Assembly: GCA_018823045.1 (NCBI GenBank)
Contig: JAHJIX010000017.1
Span: 1 to 50,299, forward strand
Length of the DNA stretch: 50,299 nt
From: Patescibacteria group bacterium
GTDB taxonomy: Bacteria > Patescibacteriota > Patescibacteriia > Magasanikbacterales > UBA922
Reading direction: 5' to 3'
The notes under the pieces are model-generated. The model was not told the origin of the DNA, did no database searches, and worked only from the letters and a program-made list of their open reading frames with translations. Both the position numbers and the translations under genes were made by a program. Below are positions 10,824 through 49,440 of this stretch, in pieces. The first letter of the stretch is position 1. The number at the start of each line of letters is the position of its first letter.

Positions 10824-11573
10824 TTATTTTGTTATTTTTTCTTTTATACAAAGAGATGAAAATACCACAAACGCCTTCCAAATCCGTTTCCACCGAGATG
10901 GCTGACGAATCAAACGCCAGAGCCATTCAAAACCAAGTATCCGAACGATCTTTGGTGCACGCACTTGCTTGCCTGATAAAAAATCAAATGTTCCACCGAT
11001 ACCCATTGCAACTTTCACACTTGGGAGACTTGGCAAATGTTCATACATCCATTTTTCTTGTTTTTTATGCCCAAATGCAACAAATAATATATCTGGAGCG
11101 CTTAAAATAATATCTTCAAGTACAGCATCTTGTTCTGTAGGATTAAGATAAATCAGGCGCTCGCCTTCTTCTTTTAGCTGCGGCCCTTTGTGCACACCGG
11201 CAATACGAAGATTTGGATACTTCTCTTGCAAATAGACTTTTGTTTTTTTGAGCACGTCATCATCTCCTGAACCGAGCAAATAGACACTTTTCCATTCGTT
11301 TTCTGCCAATGCACAGATATCTTGCATCAAATCTACTCCTGTAATACGTGGAATACGTCCTTTACTCCATAATTGAATCCCTTTGCCATCACAGACATTT
11401 ATGTCTCCATTATTTAATACTTCTTTAAAATAATGATCTGTTTGTGCATCTACCAACATTTCTGGATTTGGAGTGAAAAGTAAATATTGCTTTTGTGTAG
11501 CCAAAATTCGCTTGATTGTCTCAAGAATTTCATTCTTTTTATATGTATCAATGCGAATATCTAAACAATGCAT
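10824..11573 (-). CDS. WecB/TagA/CpsF family glycosyltransferase
   Basis: TPNPEM, CDGKGI, RITGVDL, FVAFGHKKQEKW, GIGGTFDF, GFEWLWRL; start moved to MHCLD at 11573. Confidence 0.93.
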   Translation of the reverse strand: MHCLDIRIDTYKKNEILETIKRILATQKQYLLFTPNPEMLVDAQTDHYFKEVLNNGDINVCDGKGIQLWSKGRIPRITGVDLMQDICALAENEWKSVYLLGSGDDDVLKKTKVYLQEKYPNLRIAGVHKGPQLKEEGERLIYLNPTEQDAVLEDIILSAPDILFVAFGHKKQEKWMYEHLPSLPSVKVAMGIGGTFDFLSGKQVRAPKIVRILGFEWLWRLIRQPSRWKRIWKAFVVFSSLCIKEKITK

Positions 11574-11608
11574 ATAAATTTTGCTAATTATAAAGTAATT
11601 TACCACAG

Positions 11609-11636
11609 TTGACAGTTTTTTTCAATATGGTATAGT
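11609..11636 (+). promoter_or_regulatory. clpB promoter candidate
   Basis: TTGACA (11609-11614), 16-bp spacer, TGn-TATAGT extended -10. Confidence 0.6.
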
Positions 11637-11640
11637 ATAT

Positions 11641-11667
11641 TTATCACTCTCTGTACAAGAGTGATAA
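11641..11667 (+). promoter_or_regulatory. CIRCE (HrcA operator) variant
   Basis: TTATCACTC-N9-GAGTGATAA versus consensus TTAGCACTC-N9-GAGTGCTAA, upstream of clpB. Confidence 0.8.
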
Positions 11668-11682
11668 TAATTAATGAATATT

Positions 11683-11796
11683 CTCCCCCTACGAGGGGGA
11701 GTTAGAGGGGGTCTATCTTCGCAATTGATATTGGTATTGGTTAATCCTTAATCAACTCTCCGGCAGACCCCACCTAACCTCCCCTTATAGGGGAGG
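11683..11796 (+). mobile_element. empty REPIN/MITE-like element, copy A (DUF559-associated family)
   Basis: Left end CTCCCCCTACGAGGGGGAGTTAGAGGGGGTC, 52-bp spacer, right end GACCCCACCTAACCTCCCCTTATAGGGGAGG. Confidence 0.88.
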
Positions 11797-11867
11797 AATT
11801 AAAAAATAAGTTACCCGCCCAAGGTGGGCAAACAAGTTATAAGTTACACGTTATAAGCTACAAATAT

Positions 11868-14510
11868 ATGTTTAACCCACAACAATTTACCCACAAATCA
11901 CAAGAAGCACTTGGGCGTGCCAGTGCTATCGCTCATGAAAATGGGCAACCGCAAATTGAACCTCCACACCTCTTTTTATCTCTCCTTGAGCAAACAGATG
12001 GGGTGGTTATTTCTATTTTACAAAAAGGAAATATTAATATTGATCAGCTCACCAAAAATATTCAGCAGATGATTAATGCGCTCCCAAAACAATTTGGAAA
12101 TATGGGTGGTGGTCTTGGCCAAATTATGCTTGGACAAGCCATGATGCATATGCTAGGGCAAGCGCATGATGAATCAAAAAATATGGGAGACGACTATATT
12201 TCTGTTGAACATATTCTTTTAGCCTACACCAAACAAAAAAATCCGATCAGCGATATTTTAGCAAATCAAGGACTTGATTATAAAACAATTTTAACCGTAT
12301 TAGCAGAAGTACGAGGCAACCAAAAAGTTGACTCCCCTTCTCCAGAAAACACCTACCAAGCTCTTGAAAAATACGGGACAAACTTTACTGATCTTGCACG
12401 CAAAGAAAAACTTGACCCAGTCATCGGTCGAGATGAAGAAATTCGTCGCGTCATGCAAGTCATTACACGCCGAACAAAAAACAATCCAGTGCTTATTGGA
12501 GAACCAGGTGTAGGAAAAACGGCAATTGTCGAAGGACTCGCTCAACGTATTGTCAATGGAGATGTCCCAGAATCACTCAAAGACAAAGAAATTATAGGGC
12601 TTGATATTGGTGCACTCATTGCTGGGACAAAATTTCGTGGTGAATTTGAAGAACGTTTCAAAGCCACACTCAAAGAAGTAGAAAAATCAAAAGGCAAAGT
12701 CATTCTCTTTATTGATGAATTGCATACCCTTATGGGTGCAGGTTCAAGTGACGGCAGTGTGGACGCAAGTAATATGATTAAACCGGCCCTTGCTCGTGGA
12801 GAACTCCGAACGGTTGGTGCAACAACACTCAAAGAATACCAAAAACATATTGAAAAAGATGCTGCATTTGAACGACGCTTTCAACCCGTGATGGTTCTTG
12901 AACCAGAGCAAGACGATGCCATTGCAATATTGCGTGGTATTAAAGAAAAATATGAAGTGCATCATGGAGTGCGCATTACTGACCCGGCTATTGTTGCTGC
13001 GGTAGAGCTGTCTAGTCGCTATATTTCTGATCGATTTTTACCAGATAAAGCGATTGATCTAATTGATGAAGCAACGTCAGCCCTACGTATGGAAATTGAC
13101 TCTATGCCAGATGAACTGGATCGCTTAAAACGCCAGATGATGAAATACGAAATTGAGATTGAAGCACTCAAAAAAGAAAAAGATACTGATTCAAAAAATC
13201 GACTTGCACATATTAAAAAAGAATTAGAAAACTTACGAGAAGAAAGTACAGAGCTTGAAATTCATTGGAAAAATGAAAAAGAAATCATTACCCACATTCG
13301 TGAATCCAAAAAAGAAATCGATGAACTCAAACAAGAAGCAGAAATTACAGAAAGACAAGGAGATTTACAAAAAGTAGCAGAAATTCGCTATGACCAAATT
13401 CCACAAAAAGAAAAAAATATTCAAGAATTAGAAATAAAACTCAAAGATATTCAACAAGACCGTGGTATTTTAAAAGAAGAAGTAACTGATGAAGATATAG
13501 CGAGCGTTGTCTCAAGATGGACCGGCATTCCTGTATCAAAAATGCTTCAAAGTGAAAGTGAAAAATTAACCAAACTCGAAGAAGTACTTGCCAAACGTGT
13601 GATTGGCCAAGACGAAGCTATTGCCGCGGTGTCTCACGCCATTCGTCGCTCTCGCGCTGGAATTTCAGAAGAAAAACGCCCGATTGGTTCCTTTATGTTT
13701 ATGGGACCAACCGGAGTTGGAAAAACAGAACTTGCAAAAGCGCTCGCAGAAGTACTCTTTAACGATGAAGAAGCTATTGTACGCGTAGACATGAGTGAAT
13801 ACATGGAAAAACATTCCGTTAGTAAAATGATGGGCGCAGCACCTGGCTATGTTGGCTATGAAGAAGGCGGTCAACTCACAGAAAAAATCCGTCGCCGACC
13901 ATATTCTGTTATTTTGTTTGATGAAATAGAAAAAGCACACGGAGATGTCTTTAACGTCATGCTCCAAATTTTAGATGATGGCCAATTAACTGATGCAAAA
14001 GGACGCAAAGTCAACTTTAAAAACACCGTCATTATCATGACCAGTAACGTTGGCTCAAGCATGATCATGAACCTCAGTCGCAAAGGTGAATTTGGATTTG
14101 GAGAACAACAAACACATGGCCTGAAAGAAAATGAAGATTTGATTAAGAAAAAACTTATGGATACCCTTCAAGAACACTTTAAACCAGAATTTCTCAACCG
14201 TGTGGACGATATTATCATGTTCCACCCACTCGAAGAAAAAGAAATCCGCTCAATTATTGAATTACAATTAACACATATTGAATCACGGATTGCAGAAAAG
14301 AAAATCACGCTTGATGTACTCAAAAGTGCAAAAGATTGGCTAGCTAAAAAAGGCTATGATCCAGAATTTGGCGCCCGCCCACTCAAACGAGTCCTCCAAA
14401 GAGAACTCCTGGACCCTCTTGCGATGATGATTATCGAAGGCAGCCTTGCAGAAGGTGATCATGTGAAAGTAAGAGTCGCAAAAGATGAACTGGTGATTGA
14501 AAAGAGGTAA
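11868..14510 (+). CDS. clpB: ATP-dependent chaperone ClpB
   Basis: Clp N-domain, two Walker A motifs ([16 protein letters not shown]), coiled-coil middle domain, GARPLKR. Confidence 0.98.
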
Positions 14511-16226: not shown

Positions 16227-16280
16227 ATGTTTTTCTTATAACTTATTCGCTTTTGGTAGATAAAATATTTAATGGAAGTC

Positions 16281-16395
16281 CTCCCCCTACGAGGGGGAGT
16301 TAGAGGGGGTCAATCTTTGCAATTAAGACAGGTGTCAATTAATCCTTCTTTTAGCGCTCCGTAAGACCCCACCTAACCTCCCCTTATAGGGGAGG
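16281..16395 (+). mobile_element. empty REPIN/MITE-like element, copy B
   Basis: Both 31-bp ends identical to copy A; 53-bp spacer. Confidence 0.88.
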
Positions 16396-16405
16396 AATTT
16401 TATGT

Positions 16406-27393: not shown

Positions 27394-28188
27394 TTACTCT
27401 GGAAGGTTATCCCAAAAAAAATCAAATACCATCTTTATCATACCATATAAAATTTTATCTTCAATGATAATTCCATTTGGATTCTCAGGATGTGCGTTGA
27501 TAATAGATACTTTATTTTCACCATAAATACCTAATTCACAATCATATGGAAATTGATCTTTTGAAATCATTTTTTTCTCAATACGATATGTTATATTTAT
27601 TTTCTTATATAAATCTTGCCAAAAGACAGATTCTTCTTCGGTTTCTGCCAAAATAACACGAGTTTTAATTGGTCGTTCATCTGCTTTTTTAAAATATCTT
27701 TCTAACACTCCATCTCTCAATTGCATTTGCAATGCTGTAATATTCCCCCACCCCATAATTTCATATTCTCCTGCTTGACTTACTTGATCATCTAAAATTT
27801 TTTCAATATTTTTCAAACCCTCAAAATATCTAATTTTTGGCTTATGAGGCAAAGAATTATATAATTCTTCTATATCAGGAAATACTTGTTTTGCTTGCTT
27901 AACTTGCCCTTTAGCAAGTTCTTCTTTCATTTCTGTAAAACGCAACAAACTTTCTGGTGGTTCAATTTGATAAAATTGTTTCTTTTCTTTTTCAATCTCA
28001 ACAATCAATCCTTGGACACTTAATTCTGTCAATATACGGTAAACAGTACTTCTACTAATATGTATTTCTTTTGCAATAGTACTTGGATAATCACCACCAG
28101 CTTCAAGCAAATAAAGATAAATTTTAGCCGCTTTATCACTTAAACCCAATTGTTCTACTTTTTTTTGTAATTGAATATCTATATTCAT
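27394..28188 (-). CDS. TrmB family transcriptional regulator (copy 1)
   Basis: N-terminal HTH (SRSTVYRILTELSVQGL), PHKPKIRYFEG linker, C-terminal ligand domain. Confidence 0.85.
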   Translation of the reverse strand: MNIDIQLQKKVEQLGLSDKAAKIYLYLLEAGGDYPSTIAKEIHISRSTVYRILTELSVQGLIVEIEKEKKQFYQIEPPESLLRFTEMKEELAKGQVKQAKQVFPDIEELYNSLPHKPKIRYFEGLKNIEKILDDQVSQAGEYEIMGWGNITALQMQLRDGVLERYFKKADERPIKTRVILAETEEESVFWQDLYKKINITYRIEKKMISKDQFPYDCELGIYGENKVSIINAHPENPNGIIIEDKILYGMIKMVFDFFWDNLPE

Positions 28189-28202
28189 ATTATTCCTTGT
28201 AA

Positions 28203-29000
28203 TTATTCCTTGTAATTATCCCAGCTAAAATTAAAAATCATTTTCATCATTTGATGAAATATCTTATCTTCAATAATAAATGCAACTGCTGTCTCTTTAT
28301 GATCTGTAACAATACATACTCTATCTGTCCCATAGATTAAAATTTGGCTCTCATATGGGAAAGAATCTTTTTTAAAATATTTCTGTTGTTGCAACTCAAA
28401 TAATTGTGGATATTTTGTTTTTCTTTGTTGTAAACGACTATATTTTTCTGATTCTTGATGAAAAGCACGAGAAGAAAGCCCTTTATCTAAATATGCTTGA
28501 TAATATGTATCTAATGCATCTTCAGGCAAAGATAATTGAAATTCTGAAATATTACTCCAACCACAAATTTCATAACTACCTTCCTGAGTATATATATCAT
28601 TATATGCAAAATGAACAATTTGGTCGGCCCCTTCAAAAAAACGCATAGTTGGTTTATGAGGTAAAGCTTCAAATAGTGCATTAATATCAGGGAAAATTTG
28701 CTCGGCTTCTTTTTTCCTTTTTTGAGCCAAATGTATTTGCATATCAGTATATGCCAACAAATTAACAGGTGGCTCTAACTGATAAAATAATTTATTTTTT
28801 TTCTTTACTTCAACAGCCAACCCTTTTACATGTAAATCTGTTAAAATTCTATACACTGTCGTTCTATTAATTTTTGTTTCTTTTGCAATAGCACTTGGGT
28901 ACGCTCCCCCACTTTGTAATAAAAAAATATATATTTGAGCGGACATGTCACTTAAGCCCAGCTTTTGAATTTTTTTTTGTAAACTTTTATCTGTTGTCAT
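28203..29000 (-). CDS. TrmB family transcriptional regulator (copy 2)
   Basis: NRTTVYRILTDL, PHKPTMRFFEG. Confidence 0.85.
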   Translation of the reverse strand: MTTDKSLQKKIQKLGLSDMSAQIYIFLLQSGGAYPSAIAKETKINRTTVYRILTDLHVKGLAVEVKKKNKLFYQLEPPVNLLAYTDMQIHLAQKRKKEAEQIFPDINALFEALPHKPTMRFFEGADQIVHFAYNDIYTQEGSYEICGWSNISEFQLSLPEDALDTYYQAYLDKGLSSRAFHQESEKYSRLQQRKTKYPQLFELQQQKYFKKDSFPYESQILIYGTDRVCIVTDHKETAVAFIIEDKIFHQMMKMIFNFSWDNYKE

Positions 29001-29001
29001 A

Positions 29002-29799
29002 TTATTCTTTATAACTTGCCCAGCTAAAGTTAAAAATCATCTTCATCATATTATGAAATATTTGATCTTCAACAATAAATGCAACAGGTACTTCTTTATG
29101 CGCATTAATGACAGCCACTCTATTACTTCCATATATCGAAATTTGACTTTGATATGGAAAATCCTTGGCCTCAAAATATTTTGTTTGTGGTACATTTTTT
29201 TCTTTTAATGGAGAATATAATGTTTTTTTAAATGGAGTATTTCCTTCTCCTCGCGGATAAAAAGCACGTAAAGTCAAATCTTTTTTATCTAAAATTTTAA
29301 TATACTTATTTAAAACTTTTACACCTCCTAATTTCAATTGCAAATCATTAATATTACTCCACCCAACAATCTCATAACTACCAGGTTGAGAGTATACGTC
29401 ATCATACACTTTTGTAATATTTTCTAATCCTTCAAAAAATCTGATCTTTGGTTTATGAGGAAGTGATTGAAATAATGCTTCAATATCTGGAAATAATTGC
29501 TCTGCTTTCCCTTTCTTCTCTTTTGCAAGAGTAATTTGCATGTCAGTATAACGAAGTAAACTTTTTGGTGGCTCTAGTTGATAAAATAATTTATTCTTTT
29601 TTTCTATCTCAACGACTAAACCTTTAATGGTTAATCTTGTTAATACACGATAAACTTTACTTCTATTTAATCCTGTTTCTTTTGCTATACGACTGGGGTA
29701 TCCACCACCATTTTCTAATAAATACACATAAATGACAGCCTCGCTTTCTTCTAAACCAAGCTCTGTTATCTTTTTTTGTAATTGCTTATCTGTTGGCAT
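29002..29799 (-). CDS. TrmB family transcriptional regulator (copy 3)
   Basis: NRSKVYRVLTRL, PHKPKIRFFEG. Confidence 0.85.
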   Translation of the reverse strand: MPTDKQLQKKITELGLEESEAVIYVYLLENGGGYPSRIAKETGLNRSKVYRVLTRLTIKGLVVEIEKKNKLFYQLEPPKSLLRYTDMQITLAKEKKGKAEQLFPDIEALFQSLPHKPKIRFFEGLENITKVYDDVYSQPGSYEIVGWSNINDLQLKLGGVKVLNKYIKILDKKDLTLRAFYPRGEGNTPFKKTLYSPLKEKNVPQTKYFEAKDFPYQSQISIYGSNRVAVINAHKEVPVAFIVEDQIFHNMMKMIFNFSWASYKE

Positions 29800-29808
29800 A
29801 AATTATAA

Positions 29809-30594
29809 TTATGAAATAGAATTCCACGATAAATCAAATAACAATTTAATCATCTGATATAGTACTTTATCTTCAATAATAATACCCATAGCAGTATGTT
29901 CATGGGCATTCATAAGAGAAACCCGATCTTCCCCGTATAATAAAATTTGACTTGTATATGGAAACTGTTCTTTTGATAAATATTTTGCTTGTTTTGGAAA
30001 ATCGGTTTTTGTTTTTTCTCTATATAATTGTGTTACTCCTTCTTCACGATTTTCATCTGAATAAATACCTCGTATACTCAAACCTTTTGTATAAATTTCT
30101 TCTAAATGCTCTTCCAATTTCTTAGAAGAAATATCTTTTTCTAAATCAACGATATTCCCTAATACCAAAATTTCATATGAACCCTCTTGATAAAAAACGT
30201 CATCAAAAATAGATATAAGATTATCGAACCCTTCAAAAAATCTCACAGTGGGTTTGTGTGGGAGTGATTTATATATGGCTTCAATATCATCAAAGATATT
30301 TATTGCTTTTTGATCACGTTCTTCAGCTAATCGCACTTGTGTTTTTGTATAGTTAAGTAATGATCTTGGGGGAGATACTTTATAATACAATTTATTTTTT
30401 CTTTTTGTTTCAATAATAAGCCCTTTAATGCTTAAATCTGTAAGCAACCGATAAACACTTGTTCTATTCATATTTAATTTACTCGCAATAGTACTTGGCG
30501 CAGCACCACCCTGCTCTAATAGATATGCATAAACAGAACTTAAGTTATCACTTAAGCCTAATTGTTTTATATGTGTATAAATATGTCTATTCAT
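29809..30594 (-). CDS. TrmB family transcriptional regulator (copy 4)
   Basis: NRTSVYRLLTDL, PHKPTVRFFEG. Confidence 0.85.
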   Translation of the reverse strand: MNRHIYTHIKQLGLSDNLSSVYAYLLEQGGAAPSTIASKLNMNRTSVYRLLTDLSIKGLIIETKRKNKLYYKVSPPRSLLNYTKTQVRLAEERDQKAINIFDDIEAIYKSLPHKPTVRFFEGFDNLISIFDDVFYQEGSYEILVLGNIVDLEKDISSKKLEEHLEEIYTKGLSIRGIYSDENREEGVTQLYREKTKTDFPKQAKYLSKEQFPYTSQILLYGEDRVSLMNAHEHTAMGIIIEDKVLYQMIKLLFDLSWNSIS

Positions 30595-30637
30595 ATAAAT
30601 GTATTTTCGCTATAAAATAACCATACCAAACAAATGA

Positions 30638-30676
30638 TTTTTTGTCCAATCTAACGAACAAAAAAGTTGTCCACAG
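30638..30676 (+). promoter_or_regulatory. operator-like semi-palindrome, copy 1
   Basis: TTTTTTGTCCAATCTAACGAACAAAAAAGTTGTCCACAG; 35/39 identical to 33832-33870. Confidence 0.6.
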
Positions 30677-30802
30677 GTATTTTTGTTTTACTTTAGGTAA
30701 ATTTGCACAACTAAAAATCCTTAAAAACATAAAGCCCATGTTTTTTTGATTATACTCAATTTATTGATCATTACAACTCAAAAAAATTATTAATTAAACA
30801 AC

Positions 30803-31426
30803 ATGACATCAATATTCCAAAAGAAATATATAATTATTATTTCTTTTATTGGAACTATCTTACTCATTTCAATCTGGCATATGTTTTTTATAAATAAACA
30901 AACACATACCATTGAACCGATTGGAATTATCGAAGAAGTCCCAGGACTTGAACTATTTACAGCAAGCCCACAAGAAGGACTTCGTGGACGATATACAGAA
31001 CATAATCAAAGCGTATACTTTGAAGCAATTCGAAGTGGCATTAGACACCCAAAAATTATTCAAGAAGCATTTTTGACTCATGAGTATAATGTTGAATATC
31101 GATTTTATACTCAAGATGGCCAAGAATTTTTTGGACCAAATATTGGTACAGCATCTCCAAATATAGAATGGATCGCATGGGCTGGTTGGTCTGATCTAAA
31201 CAAAGATGGCGTTTCAGATAACTTATCTCATCTATCTCTCAAATATTATGAAAATGAAGAAGTGTATCTTGATACCTTACACACAAATTATATGCTTGCA
31301 TATAAAGCCACACAAGCACTTCAACAAGTTCCACTTGTATCAGAAGAACTTGCATTAGAAATTAATCTCCTTCAAAGCGCACCTAAACAGATACAAGAAG
31401 AATATCGATTGTTAGAACAAAAATAG
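30803..31426 (+). CDS. hypothetical exported/membrane-anchored protein
   Basis: N-terminal TM; motifs resembling the 32692 product. Confidence 0.7.
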   Translation: MTSIFQKKYIIIISFIGTILLISIWHMFFINKQTHTIEPIGIIEEVPGLELFTASPQEGLRGRYTEHNQSVYFEAIRSGIRHPKIIQEAFLTHEYNVEYRFYTQDGQEFFGPNIGTASPNIEWIAWAGWSDLNKDGVSDNLSHLSLKYYENEEVYLDTLHTNYMLAYKATQALQQVPLVSEELALEINLLQSAPKQIQEEYRLLEQK

Positions 31427-31427
31427 T

Positions 31428-31478
31428 TGTTGCAGGTAAGAAGTGCTGAAAAATTTCAGCTCTTCCCTCTGCAATAAC
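31428..31478 (+). repeat. 51-bp structured leader repeat, copy 1
   Basis: 48/51 identical to 32613-32663; internal hairpin GAAG(T/A)GCTGA-AAAATT-T(C/T)AGCTCTTC. Confidence 0.85.
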
Positions 31479-31505
31479 TGTAGAGCGTAATCCTATTAGG
31501 AGGAT

Positions 31506-32558
31506 GTGATGAAACACACCTGCATCTTGTTCCTCAGCATGATGGCCATGTTGGCCTTCGGCTGTGGGGAAGACCTCACACAAGCTTTGGTGGATACCCC
31601 CACCCAAGAATCCCCCACGGAAGAATTTGAGCAAGAGTCATTCTCTGTCATCAAATTCCAAGAAGGAACAACATCATCTGAGGCCTTACGTCTGTTTCAG
31701 ACCAACAACAACCCCGACTTAGAAGTAACTGTTGTCCTTCCTAGCTACACATCTCATCGATATGTACGAAAGGACTCCCCAGAGAATCAACAGGCGTCTA
31801 TCCTGAATCAAGAAATTGAATTCATCAAATTCATATCAAATCAATTTGATACCGAAGATGAACTTGAGTCCGTTGTCTACAATGAACTCATGGAGACGCT
31901 TTTAGAAATTGAGCAAAACAGCCATGTCACCGTGCAATCAATCAAGATTAAAACGGCTGATTTTCAAAAGTTTGACATAATTCCATCTCTGATTCAAGAT
32001 ATTCAGATCCATGACTCCATACAAAATATTGGAGACACACTGAATACCCGTAGAGATGCAATCACCGACTTTACTGATGACAGGGCTTATGTACCAGATG
32101 GTGGCTCATCCACAATTTGGACAAGTGGTAGCCTCCAAAAATTTTGGTTTACATCATCTCAATTATCGCATTACTCTAGTTGGCGTAGAGGATTAGAGAT
32201 TGATACATTGATCATCCCTCGCAGTCGGGCTGGATGTGGGAATAATACGAGCACGAATATGCCTGTTTCCTATAAAGACACAGAAGCCTTTGACGATGGG
32301 AATGCTCGTATATGTACTGTTGGAACGAGTAGTGCCAATAGACTTCGGCCAAATAGGCTTTACTGGACCTGGCATTCCTTCTCTAGTTTCGAACAAGGCC
32401 TTAACCCAACAATTCAAGTTCTTTTCCAGCCCACAAAGAGAATGTGGATTGGTCAAGCTTGGGCTATGTTTAGTGATTCCCATATGCCTATTCAATGGTT
32501 GCTCCAATATAATTATAACGAAGCACCTGGACGCGAAGTATCTTGGAATCATAACTAA
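31506..32558 (+). CDS. putative lipoprotein
   Basis: AGGAGG SD; lipobox LAFGC followed by GED. Confidence 0.8.
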   Translation: MMKHTCILFLSMMAMLAFGCGEDLTQALVDTPTQESPTEEFEQESFSVIKFQEGTTSSEALRLFQTNNNPDLEVTVVLPSYTSHRYVRKDSPENQQASILNQEIEFIKFISNQFDTEDELESVVYNELMETLLEIEQNSHVTVQSIKIKTADFQKFDIIPSLIQDIQIHDSIQNIGDTLNTRRDAITDFTDDRAYVPDGGSSTIWTSGSLQKFWFTSSQLSHYSSWRRGLEIDTLIIPRSRAGCGNNTSTNMPVSYKDTEAFDDGNARICTVGTSSANRLRPNRLYWTWHSFSSFEQGLNPTIQVLFQPTKRMWIGQAWAMFSDSHMPIQWLLQYNYNEAPGREVSWNHN

Positions 32559-32612
32559 AGATAACTTCATCACAATAACCAATTCAACTCGGTAACCGAT
32601 AATAGGTTCCGA

Positions 32613-32663
32613 TGTTGCTGGTAAGAAGAGCTGAAAAATTTTAGCTCTTCCCTCTGCAATAAC
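32613..32663 (+). repeat. 51-bp structured leader repeat, copy 2
   Basis: Matches 31428-31478. Confidence 0.85.
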
Positions 32664-32691
32664 GCAGACACTCACCCTACTAGGGGGAAAT

Positions 32692-33720
32692 GTGAAAAAA
32701 CTGCTCTACCTCTTTAGCTTGATGGGCATACTATCCATCGGCTGCGGAGAAGAATATCTCATCCTTGATGGGATACAAGAAGAAGTCCAACAGGGCTTTG
32801 AGAACAACAACCGCTCCAACATGGAGCCACAAGATAATCCAGAGTCCAGCTACGCGCTCGACTTTGATATCAACAACGACGATAAGGTACGCGTTTACTT
32901 GACGGATAAGATGGATGGTCATGGTATCATCCTCGAAATCCTCCGCGGCCCCGATCGCCCCCTCCTCCAAGATGATGATGGAAAAGACATCATTGATCCC
33001 GAGCTCCCAGCTCAAGAGATCGATGCCCGATTCATTTCGATGTACGGCCAGACCTTCATGAGTAGTTATGGAGGACACGGTCCGGTTAACCCAAACTGGG
33101 GTGATCGAGATGATATACATACTGATATTGATGAACGTGCACGAGACTTTGAAATGGCGGTCATGATGATCGATATACTCGCAAACGAGAAGGTCAATCT
33201 TGAACTTTTTGATGAAGCAAATAACTTAATTTACAACTTCAAAAAGACCTCTAAGATCATCCATCCATCTGAACATACAAATATTCAAACGAAGAGCCTA
33301 CGGATATATCAACACCACTTCTTGATACATTATTCAGAGATTCGTTTGAACTTTCATCATTCCGCAACAGCAGACCATATTTACTATGCTAATCGTCCAT
33401 ATAACTATCACTACACAAAGAATCATGGTAGAGGCCCTTTTGAATCAGGAATGCGTCGTCGATGCTTACGAACATTTAACTTTTACATAGGCCATGCCCC
33501 ATTCTCCAGTTCTTGTGCTGATAGTAGAGACGATGGATTAGCCTGTTGTAATACTGGATATGGAAAGAGCTCTGGACATCATGTATGTAATGATGACACC
33601 CTCCTCCAAAAAGAAATAATGATACTAGAAGATCAATTAAGATATTATGATCATCATAATCAGACTTCTAGTACATGTCGAGACTGGTGGCCACGAGCCT
33701 ACGCCCCCTCCTGCAACTAA
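32692..33720 (+). CDS. putative lipoprotein with Cys/His-rich C-terminal domain
   Basis: AGGGGG SD, GTG start, lipobox LSIGC followed by GEE; seven Cys in the C-terminal ~75 aa. Confidence 0.8.
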   Translation: MKKLLYLFSLMGILSIGCGEEYLILDGIQEEVQQGFENNNRSNMEPQDNPESSYALDFDINNDDKVRVYLTDKMDGHGIILEILRGPDRPLLQDDDGKDIIDPELPAQEIDARFISMYGQTFMSSYGGHGPVNPNWGDRDDIHTDIDERARDFEMAVMMIDILANEKVNLELFDEANNLIYNFKKTSKIIHPSEHTNIQTKSLRIYQHHFLIHYSEIRLNFHHSATADHIYYANRPYNYHYTKNHGRGPFESGMRRRCLRTFNFYIGHAPFSSSCADSRDDGLACCNTGYGKSSGHHVCNDDTLLQKEIMILEDQLRYYDHHNQTSSTCRDWWPRAYAPSCN

Positions 33721-33783
33721 AAAGAAACACTTCATCACACCCCACCTAATTAACATGACTCAATGAGTTGTGTCCCACCCTTA

Positions 33784-33813
33784 ACCCTGTGCCTAGGCAT
33801 AGGGTCCTTTTTT
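33784..33813 (+). terminator. intrinsic terminator of the lipoprotein unit
   Basis: ACCCTGTGCC-TA-GGCATAGGGT followed by CCTTTTTT. Confidence 0.75.
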
Positions 33814-33831
33814 ATCTAAAATATTAATATA

Positions 33832-33870
33832 TTTTTTGTCCAATTTGACGAACAAAATAGTTTTCCACAG
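33832..33870 (+). promoter_or_regulatory. operator-like semi-palindrome, copy 2
   Basis: TTTTTTGTCCAATTTGACGAACAAAATAGTTTTCCACAG. Confidence 0.6.
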
Positions 33871-34170
33871 ATTTTTAACGCTAATTACAAGCAAAAATAC
33901 AGTATTTCAATTTTCATGTTTCACACAAAAATAAAGTACTTGCTATATTTAATTTAGATTGCTCATTACAATTTAAACGAAAGGAAGAACAGAAAACTGC
34001 CACTTTCTTTACATAATGTACATTATAACGTACATAGTTAATTTCATGTTGTGAACAACACAACAAAACAACAGTATACTCATATACTGTAAAACACATA
34101 ATAGTTTAAACATGAGGTGAAGTAATAGGCACTTCATGTTTAGATTGAATAACAAAAAAGGAAATACATC

Positions 34171-34480
34171 GTGAGAAAACTCTTCTCTATCCTGGGCATG
34201 TTTTTCATGCTGCTGGGATTAGCCCCAACACCAGTCGAGGCACAACAAACCGCCACCAACTTCATCTACCCGGTGAAAGCAACGGATGTCAACAACATCC
34301 TCGACAACATCAACGATCCTGCCGATGGGCATGGTTGGGTGATCTATACGAGCTTGGGTAGCTACTACAACAACGGCAGCGATTGCCTGACTGGCTACCA
34401 CGACGCTGATGACTACAACCGCACAGGCGCTGCCAACAACGATCTGAATGCTCCGGTATATGCGGTTGCTAACGGTACTG
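34171..34480 (+). pseudogene. truncated secreted M23 family peptidase
   Basis: Signal peptide, FIYPV, GYHDADDYN (HxxxD), APVYAVANG; the frame then runs into antisense TrmB sequence and lacks the HxH motif. Confidence 0.75.
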
Positions 34481-34699
34481 ATAAAATAATTTATTCTTTT
34501 TTTCTACTTCAACAACCAAGCCTTGTGCAACTAACTCATCAAGTATACGGTACACACTACCACGAGTAATTTTAGTTTCTTTAGAAATTCTACTTGGAAA
34601 AGTTTTATTTTGTTCTAATAAAAACAAATAAATACCCGTTGCCTTTTCTCCTAAACCCAATTTTGTTATTTTTTCTATTACTTTTGAATCAATAGCCAT
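34469..34699 (-). pseudogene. truncated TrmB family regulator (copy 5, HTH only)
   Basis: Matches copies 1-4 up to KKNKLFYQ, then stops after two codons. Confidence 0.85.
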
Positions 34700-43838: not shown

Positions 43839-43963
43839 AATACAAAAATTAGCTATGTATATAACATATAGCCCTATCCTAACACATTAATCAAAACATG
43901 AGAAGCCCCTACACTCCAATATACTGTCATCCTGAGTGACTGAAGTAAATAACAATTAAAGTC

Positions 43964-44078
43964 CCTCCCCTATAAGGGGAGGTTAGGTGGGGTCTTTCGG
44001 AGGAATTGAAGAAGGTTTATTATTAAAAAATCTTAATCGCAAATATGGACCCCCTCTAACTCCCCCTCGTAGGGGGAG
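43964..44078 (-). mobile_element. empty REPIN/MITE-like element, copy C
   Basis: Reverse complement has both 31-bp ends identical to copies A and B; 53-bp spacer. Confidence 0.88.
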
Positions 44079-44091
44079 AAATTCTCTTTAT

Positions 44092-48858: not shown

Positions 48859-48920
48859 AATCGTATCGTTTCTGAGTCTATAATAGCGTAAAATACGCTG
48901 AATGACAAGGGTACAATGTT

Positions 48921-49362
48921 CCTCCCCTATGAGGGGAGGTTAGGTGGGGTCCTTCGAAGAAAATATATGAACAATCTGCCACAATTGTTCTAATACTATA
49001 TCGAGTTCATTCAAAATTTGTTCATTTCTATATCTAACAATAGTATATCCTTGTTCTTCTAAATATGTTTGTCTTTCGATATCTTTTAATCTTTGTTTAT
49101 TTTCTCCATGAATATTTCCATCTATTTCTAAAATCAATCTTAATTCATGACAATAAAAATCTACAATATAATAATCAATATTATATTGTCTTCTAAATTT
49201 TATTCCTAATTGTTTCCCTCGTAATTCCTGCCAAAGAATCTGTTCTGACTTCGTTGCTTGTTTACGAAGTAACTTTCTTCTTTCTCTTGTTGATGATTGA
49301 TTTTGATAATATAACTTATTTTCCATAGATGAACCCCCTCTAACTCCCCCTCATAGGGGGAG
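48921..49362 (-). mobile_element. loaded REP-flanked element carrying a DUF559 endonuclease gene, copy D
   Basis: Ends at 49331-49362 and 48921-48951 differ from copies A-C by 2 nt and 1 nt and enclose one ORF. Confidence 0.85.
48940..49326 (-). CDS. DUF559 / very-short-patch-repair (Vsr-like) endonuclease
   Basis: LRKQAT.SE.ILWQELR, KFRRQY, YIVDFYC, ILEIDGNIH, GYTIVRYRN. Confidence 0.92.
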   Translation of the reverse strand: MENKLYYQNQSSTRERRKLLRKQATKSEQILWQELRGKQLGIKFRRQYNIDYYIVDFYCHELRLILEIDGNIHGENKQRLKDIERQTYLEEQGYTIVRYRNEQILNELDIVLEQLWQIVHIFSSKDPT

Positions 49363-49440
49363 AATAAATCATTATATTTAGTATATCATAAAAAATACAT
49401 TCCCATTGAAACATACTCATTTTTAGGGTATGATACCTCT

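Follow-up and report, generated by a model that had tools for sequence, protein, structure and literature searches.

The DNA analysed here (the window) is 50,299 nt of chromosome from an uncultured bacterium of the Patescibacteria (candidate phyla radiation, CPR; assembly GCA_018823045.1, contig JAHJIX010000017.1), and our subject is a pair of adjacent lipoprotein genes within it, A and B, each of which is preceded by a nearly identical hairpin-forming leader (L1 before A, L2 before B; Table 1). Together with the open reading frames (ORFs) ORF207 and ORF132, these genes form a block of four plus-strand genes for exported proteins, which sits between a minus-strand array of TrmB-like regulator genes and recQ. 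The start codons of A and B are most likely ATG 31509 and GTG 32692. In our terminator scan no terminator-like site was found between ORF207, A and B, and a single one follows B; judged from these sequence features, the three genes would form one putative transcription unit. Because the gap between hairpin and start codon is only 28-30 nt, there is no room for a promoter between the two, and a consensus scan detected no promoter inside the leader element itself. Weak -10-like hexamers, identified by eye only, lie just 5′ of L1 (TAGAAC, 31413-31418) and of L2 (GATAAT, 32598-32603).

Table 1. Features of the lipoprotein locus and its immediate surroundings (window coordinates; SD, Shine-Dalgarno sequence)
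Feature	Coordinates	Strand	Basis or remark
Four tandem TrmB-like regulator genes	27394-30594	minus	ORF list and Pfam
ORF207, signal-anchored protein, first gene of the putative three-gene unit	30803-31426	plus	ORF list
Leader hairpin copy 1 (L1)	31428-31478	plus	1 nt past the ORF207 stop; 30 nt from its end to the A start
TGTAGAG, able to pair with the L1 3′ arm CTCTGCA (31467-31473) in place of the 5′ arm (helix P1′)	31479-31485	plus	constrained and long-context folds
SD region of A: mini-hairpin TCCT-ATT-AGGA (31491-31501) overlapping SD AGGAGG (31498-31503)	31491-31503	plus	marginal stability
Gene A, lipoprotein of 349 aa from ATG 31509; signal peptide and lipobox Cys19 encoded by 31509-31565	31509-32558	plus	
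3′ shared block copy 1, AAC-TAA through ACTTCATCACA	32553-32574	plus	exact 11-mer match
Leader hairpin copy 2 (L2)	32613-32663	plus	54 nt after the A stop; ends 28 nt before the B start
GCAGA, alternative partner of the L2 3′ arm (P1′, 5 bp)	32664-32668	plus	
SD region of B: mini-hairpin CCCT-ACT-AGGG (32675-32685) overlapping SD AGGGGGA	32675-32688	plus	
Gene B, lipoprotein of 342 aa	32692-33720	plus	ORF list
3′ shared block copy 2	33715-33739	plus	
Terminator-like hairpin plus T-run, where the transcription unit probably ends	33784-33815	plus	terminator scan
ORF132, truncated	34171-34569	plus	ORF list

The two leaders are identical at 48 of 51 positions, a level that none of 100 shuffled sequences matched. 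This bears out the 51-bp repeat described in the original prediction, which had been made from the letters alone, and the hairpin that it had placed within an outer stem is likewise recovered. Specifically, each leader folds into an inner stem of 10-11 bp enclosed by an outer stem of 8-9 bp, giving an architecture of lower stem, small internal loop, upper stem and loop. The fold energies are −22.8 kcal/mol for L1 and −20.9 kcal/mol for L2, with z-scores of −6.2 and −5.4, respectively, relative to dinucleotide shuffles. The three substitutions that distinguish the copies all fall at stem positions (two of them give a U·U mismatch, one in each copy, and the third turns G-C into G·U), and there are no compensatory changes among them. 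With respect to strand, the G·U pair of L2 costs the antisense strand 6 kcal/mol (−20.9 versus −15.0 kcal/mol).

The homology between the two genes extends well beyond the hairpin. Past the first 51 nt, 18 of 30 positions are identical up to the start codon and 46 of 69 through the signal peptide to the lipobox and two further codons, all above shuffled controls, for a 5′ homologous block of 147 nt in total. The similarity vanishes two codons past the lipobox Cys, and the shared block ends near 31574 in A. Conservation within this block is uneven, the leader being better conserved than the next 99 homologous nt (Fisher p = 5e-5). At the DNA level, the signal-peptide segments of A and B share an identity of 0.67, as compared with 0.61 between B and a true paralog, P0025 (described below), and 0.42-0.57 for unrelated lipoprotein signal peptides. 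Since the A/B value is well above this background, the 5′ ends of the two genes are homologous even though their cargo is not. A second, shorter block is shared at the 3′ ends. The motif ACTTCATCACA occurs exactly twice in the window, after both stop codons (32564-32574 and 33729-33739), and is part of a segment with 21 of 25 positions identical that takes in the final AAC codon and the TAA stop of each gene; none of 500 shuffles reached this score.

Both proteins carry the GCGE lipobox that had been reported for them along with the 3′ motif. The lipobox reads FGCGED in A, with MKHTCILFLSMMAMLAFG directly before the Cys, and IGCGEE in B, with MKKLLYLFSLMGILSIG in the same place, which identifies each as a bacterial lipoprotein and substrate of Lgt and Lsp. 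Beyond the N-terminus the two part company. BLASTP aligns residues 1-75 only, and a comparison of the two family profiles with hhalign aligns only a 22-column signal peptide; hhalign of a sequence against a profile was likewise confined to the N-terminus or signal peptide. Because the profiles align at the signal peptide and nowhere else, A and B are not diverged tandem paralogs; full-length paralogy, the explanation by simple duplication, is rejected, and the impression that the mature proteins are dissimilar, originally gained by eye, holds at the level of hidden Markov models. The locus thereby displays a shared leader-peptide pattern, in which the upstream region and leader peptide are homologous and the mature proteins are non-homologous.

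Each of the two proteins has relatives of its own. The A family comprises 10 relatives at 32-41% identity, all lipoprotein-like and of approximately 340 aa, one of which comes from a Magasanikbacteria metagenome-assembled genome (MAG). The window A protein is without a Cys-containing loop that is found in 10 of 10 homologs (alignment columns ~355-375). B belongs to a separate, widespread and uncharacterised family with 78 relatives of similar length in an exhaustive HMMER search; a word-index search had matched B alone, and its status as an orphan is accordingly rejected. Members of the B family are exported proteins of about 330 aa with several conserved Cys residues, and the motifs HS(AT) (also written HSAT), NHG, HVCNDD and C-terminal APxC are invariant or nearly so. 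Almost all sequences in the A-family alignment, and most members of the B family, have the lipobox Cys. Neither family has a match in Pfam, NCBIfam or the PDB. An AlphaFold model of A (mean predicted local distance difference test score, pLDDT, of 72) gave no significant match against the PDB, and a single-sequence structure model of B, with a pLDDT of 31, was unusable for a comparison of the two folds.

Further insight comes from a paralogous locus on another contig of the same MAG (L011), which encodes P0025, the closest relative of B (36% identity). The gene order there is a 198-aa ORF207 paralog (48% identity), a third hairpin (L3) that begins 3 nt after its stop codon, and P0025, and no A-type gene is present between the ORF207 paralog and P0025. 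The intergenic region starts with TGTTGTAGG and the hairpin ends with CCTGTAAT, the window counterparts being TGTTGCAGG and TCTGCAAT. The 3′ motif is absent from this locus. An hhalign comparison of ORF207 and its L011 paralog with the B family, at a probability of 97.5% (E 8.7e-12), shows both to be homologs of its N-terminal half; ORF207 is a stand-alone copy of that half. The 198-aa gene is also the sole known relative of ORF207, and none was found in JGI metagenomes.

The L3 hairpin comprises 25 bp, 10 of which are G·U, and has a fold energy of −22.7 kcal/mol on the sense strand versus −2.3 kcal/mol on the antisense strand. Because it is stable on the sense strand only, the structure would act in RNA rather than in DNA. 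The interior of L3 bears no sequence relation to that of L1 and L2. The outer stems of L1 and L3 nonetheless place eight pairs in register; in three of these, one base alone has changed and the pair is kept (G-C to G·U, C-G to U·G, and G·U to G-C). The register was read from each fold separately, since MAFFT placed the L3 3′ arm wrongly and RNAalifold on the three leaders was uninformative. We regard L3 as the best evidence for a structure that has been kept in the coding-strand RNA, and that would be neither a DNA palindrome nor a neutral leftover. A function as intrinsic terminator or attenuator was rejected, as no U-tract follows the hairpins; the sequences that come next are AACTGTAGAG, AACGCAGACA and TTATGCAGGA. 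As a separate observation, a distant B-family gene from another organism, P0030, also has a strong hairpin upstream (GGAAAAGTGATCT...AGATCACTTTC, L012 335-400), the sequence of which is unrelated to that of the leader.

The explanation that we favor, and to which we assign roughly an even chance, is that an expression and export module has been copied so that it now serves two lipoprotein genes, with the intercistronic RNA hairpin acting as a processing or stability element. The ancestral order would have been an ORF207-like gene, a long RNA hairpin and a B-family lipoprotein gene, an arrangement still seen at L011. The window holds two copies of the 5′ module, made up of the hairpin, the ribosome-binding region and the signal peptide with GCGE lipobox, and two of the short stop-codon block; one copy of the module would have been joined to an unrelated A-family mature domain, making gene A a chimera. 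L1 would then retain the ancestral junction with ORF207, and L2 the ancestral junction with B. We infer this direction of the copying event, in which a recombination boundary, one of two interpretations offered in the original prediction, survives as history: the mature domain of A would have become joined to a B-type leader and signal peptide.

In terms of mechanism, the hairpin would act in the mRNA and not in DNA, as an intercistronic or 5′-proximal stem-loop. It may be a processing site for a double-strand-specific ribonuclease (RNase), a shield of the adjoining cistrons against exonucleases, or both, and in either case the level of lipoprotein expression would not depend on the upstream gene. 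Processing or stabilizing elements between cistrons classically take the form of an irregular hairpin spanning some two helical turns, examples being the RNase III sites of phage T7 early mRNA, the stabilizing 5′ stem-loop of the ompA leader, and repetitive extragenic palindromic (REP) stem-loops. The hairpins described here share with these a lower stem, internal loop and upper stem placed just before the next ribosome-binding site (RBS) with no U-tract, and their size of 19-25 bp with an internal loop means that the architecture alone fits an RNase III-type signal. They have no sequence similarity to the T7, ompA or REP examples, and membership cannot be claimed. We propose the processing or stability role with moderate confidence.

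Several observations weigh against this explanation. First, the loops of L1 and L2 are conserved as well as the stems, and conservation of this kind would fit sequence-specific recognition or recent copying better than a purely structural constraint. Second, the spacing to the upstream stop codon is not kept, with L2 located 54 nt away as opposed to 1-3 nt for L1 and L3. Third, there are only three instances of the hairpin, all from one population, and for this reason there is no statistical covariation. Finally, A, B and ORF132 have G+C contents at third codon positions (GC3) of 0.42, 0.43 and 0.66, respectively (0.54 within the 5′ half of B), versus 0.18 for ORF207 and 0.17-0.31 across the plus-strand genes at the paralogous locus (L011 5271-8550). 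Since A and B are unlike ORF207 in this respect, the two may have come in together, which complicates a scenario in which A was inserted. More generally, the odd GC3 of the exported-protein cargo (window 31509-34468) is consistent with a foreign origin.

An unlikely explanation is that the module was copied by duplication or gene conversion and that the hairpin has no function of its own, the identity of L1 and L2 reflecting the recency or locality of copying. The existence of just two near-identical copies, with loops conserved like the stems, speaks for such a neutral remnant, as does the nature of the three substitutions, which weaken pairing or are neutral and are never compensatory. Further copies were also lacking in the collections searched. 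Exact 20-25-mers of the leader returned two chance matches only among GTDB species representatives (in a Paenibacillus and a Woesearchaeota coding region), and exact cores returned none in JGI metagenomes or IMG/VR. An outer-stem regular expression and an L1+L2 covariance model recovered the known copies only over 110 kb of sequence, and nothing similar to the leaders was found upstream of the distant A-family homologs. A recent copy of the whole module should, however, be uniformly similar, whereas identity falls from 94% to ~65% immediately after nt 51. In addition, L3 occupies the equivalent position at the paralogous locus, although its interior differs and G·U pairs are numerous in it, a pattern that points to selection at the level of RNA structure.

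Somewhat less probable again is a translational or ligand-responsive switch, in which P1, the helix formed by the 3′ and 5′ arms, would exchange with an alternative helix, P1′, through a ribosome terminating at the ORF207 stop codon or through the binding of a factor, and would thereby control lipoprotein initiation. P1′, in which the 3′ arm pairs downstream in place of pairing with the 5′ arm, appeared when longer stretches were folded and when the 5′ arm was kept from pairing. It is possible in all three leaders (CUCUGCA/UGUAGAG in L1, 7 bp; UCUGC/GCAGA in L2, 5 bp; UCCUGUA/UGCAGGA in L3, 7 bp), and two double compensatory changes separate the L1 and L3 versions. The competition between P1 and P1′ in these models leaves room for a bistable leader, and the start of L1 and L3 within a few nucleotides of an upstream stop codon would suit a ribosome-dependent mechanism, although L2 lies too far downstream to share this placement. 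Blocking the 5′ arm in silico, however, produced no consistent change in the accessibility of the SD or start codon, and we therefore retain P1′ as an unexplained feature and a minority hypothesis.

The ribosome-binding regions offer little more to a switch. The original prediction had each SD locked in a small hairpin, and the sequences in question are indeed present, with one compensatory difference between them (U-A to C-G); the lock itself is weak, amounting to 4 bp only. The stretch between the hairpin and the first nucleotides after the start codon, which covers both the SD and the start, folds no better than shuffles (fraction at least as stable 0.13-0.19), and the SD downstream of L3 is not sequestered in this manner. 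The proposal of a cis-regulatory RNA, made at the same time, is sustained in its general form by the in-register outer stem and sense-only stability of L3, and fails in its specific form as a riboswitch. In the Rfam comparison that had been suggested, a scan of the whole window at the gathering threshold returned only a tRNA, and the leaders were unmatched at E<=10 (30500-34300 and L011:5000-7300). A riboswitch or aptamer was rejected, given that each leader is a single extended hairpin with no multi-helix junction, that the interior differs between L1/L2 and L3, and that no copies were found in the other genomes and metagenomes searched. One further potential pairing was noted in this region: TTCATCACA, within the 3′ motif after A (32566-32574), is the exact reverse complement of TGTGATGAA across the A start codon (31505-31513), a possible 9-nt long-range interaction that is without counterpart at gene B.

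A bolder version of the regulatory view would hold that the hairpin, with P1 and P1′, is a new lineage-specific cis-regulatory RNA of Patescibacteria that is portable together with the RBS and signal peptide, in effect a cassette front end for expression and export, and that recombination can place it before unrelated cargo to bring this under common post-transcriptional control. We consider this doubtful.

The leader and the ACTTCATCACA block could also be active recombination sites, crossover points at which gene conversion or a site-specific recombinase would exchange lipoprotein cargo. The cargo, which is non-homologous, does lie between conserved 5′ and 3′ blocks, and the paralogous locus is without gene A. 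The 5′ block also spans the untranslated region (UTR) and early coding region, as do two known systems of this kind. In Borrelia hermsii, the vmp upstream homology sequence (UHS) of 61-62 bp spans the RBS and first codons, reaching 26 bp into the coding region, with a separate 3′ block after the stop codon and an inverted repeat (PMC6011951). In Mycoplasma, the vpma and vsp genes have a conserved 5′ UTR and signal-peptide region, with recombination sites at −1 to −72 (PMC2268961). The window resembles the vmp UHS and its downstream counterpart (DHS) in having a 5′ block, a 3′ block and an inverted repeat around non-homologous lipoprotein cargo, and resembles M. agalactiae vpma and M. bovis vsp in its conserved 5′ UTR and signal-peptide coding region followed by differing mature parts.

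The resemblance does not extend to the mechanisms. The vmp system operates by gene conversion of approximately 60 silent promoterless genes into one expression site, whereas both genes in the window look expressible, no silent archive was found, the assemblies show no variation, and the 3′ block is only ~25 nt. The vpma and vsp systems rely on a tyrosine recombinase (Xer1 or Mbr), a single promoter and DNA inversion; here, by contrast, no recombinase was found, the copies are in direct orientation, and no inversion variants were seen. Specifically, Pfam detected no recombinase or integrase domain in 27 window ORFs, flanking genes included, nor was one among the Pfam hits of the genes called around the region. 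Within the 110 kb there are no silent promoterless copies, only the two genes, each with its own SD and start codon, in direct orientation and in one putative unit, and neither of these is a silent cassette. Two MAGs (GCA_018824665.1 and GCA_018814165.1) and two Logan assemblies contain identical DNA, and four other assemblies are counted as 100% identical to the window across the region (three in one tally, over the parts that they cover). The paralogous locus is identical in both MAGs, and no strain variation appeared at either locus among the assemblies compared. Because silent archives, a recombinase and population variants are all lacking in this comparison, we do not file the module under the vmp or vpma types. 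Given also that the 3′ motif is absent at L011 and that L3 is not a DNA palindrome, we judge active cargo swapping, the other part of the original recombination proposal, to be improbable.

Very little likelihood attaches to a DNA operator, in which the palindrome GAAGAGCTGAAA/TTTCAGCTCTTC would be bound by an adjacent TrmB-like regulator. TrmB-like genes, four in tandem plus a fragment, lie on either side of the block, as DNA L1 and L2 form almost perfect inverted repeats (the covariance model also matches the reverse strand), and strict sequence conservation would fit recognition by a protein. Against this, the homologous L3 is no DNA palindrome, as its antisense energy makes plain, the C to T substitution in L2 keeps pairing in RNA only, as G·U, and the site is intercistronic and close to the start codons with no promoter-like site nearby.

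Least credible of all is the insertion of a miniature palindromic mobile or repetitive element (REP-like, or like a miniature inverted-repeat transposable element, MITE) upstream of both genes: the leader has terminal inverted arms and a short palindromic form, and the window does hold another, unrelated family of palindromic repeats, but there are two copies only in 110 kb and none in the public collections searched, the homology runs on into the SD region and signal peptide, and L3 has the same position and outer stem. An integron attC site was rejected together with the REP and MITE readings. Such sites lie 3′ of a cassette ORF, have RYYYAAC...GTTRRRY core sites and need the IntI integrase. 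The element described here is likewise an imperfect palindrome associated with a gene-sized cassette; unlike attC, it precedes the gene and merges into homologous coding sequence, its ends (GTTGCAG...AATAAC) are in the wrong order and do not fit the consensus, and no integrase was found.

The closest precedent for the overall pattern is found in Borrelia burgdorferi, where the Erp/Elp genes (OspE/F-like leader peptides, or 'upstream homology box' genes) have a common upstream sequence and leader peptide and encode unrelated mature proteins (PMC12018966). The lipoprotein genes of the window share this combination. They differ in that Erp/Elp genes occur in many copies on cp32 prophage plasmids, with an upstream region made up of promoter and operator, whereas here there are two chromosomal copies in an operon-like unit with an intercistronic hairpin; there is no sequence relationship between the two systems. 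The module is a new instance, in Patescibacteria, of leader sharing among unrelated lipoproteins, with the structured RNA hairpin as an added feature.

Several further features were noted around the locus and elsewhere. Housekeeping genes around the region include those for DnaE, GltX, ClpB, IscS, NifU and RecQ. A 76-aa N-terminal TrmB fragment (34469-34699) is located on the far side of the exported-protein block, and the 3′ end of ORF132 runs antisense into this fragment and overlaps it. The placement of the fragment looks like a rearrangement scar, as though the block 30595-34468 now interrupted what was once a TrmB array. Two copies of a 46-nt direct repeat (ATTTTTTGTCCAAT..GTT[GT]TCCACAG), which are 87% identical, are found upstream of ORF207 (30637-30682) and, just after the B terminator, upstream of ORF132 (33831-33876); they may be a promoter or operator common to both genes, or may mark where a duplicated segment begins and ends. 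Antisense ORFs at 31383-31634 and 32193-32675 were dismissed as mechanical, given their overlap with gene A or the leaders and the non-synonymous effect that the leader substitutions have in their frames. Elsewhere in the window, GC-rich composite palindromic repeats occupy intergenic positions (11666-11800, 16264-16399, 43958-44082, and 48915-48962 with 49324-49366). The units, of the form CTCCCCCTACGAGGGGGAGTTAGAGGGGGTC, come in two sequence variants, are found in either orientation and are arranged as inverted pairs, one of which brackets a 128-aa ORF; the family has no Rfam match. At L011, a Cas12a (Cpf1)-like gene with REC1, PI-like, RuvC and NUC domains (10863-13029) lies about 4 kb downstream of the paralogous lipoprotein locus.

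Patescibacteria are uncultured, and to our knowledge the control of their surface and secreted proteins is almost wholly obscure, even though these proteins presumably mediate the host-dependent lifestyle of the group. With three instances from one population, the present case is a documented example and a seed for searches, and not a general mechanism. If our explanation is correct, a leader selected at the RNA level and copied along with a signal peptide onto unrelated cargo would show a route by which new lipoproteins are recruited in these reduced genomes, and it would provide a concrete RNA element to look for in metatranscriptomes.

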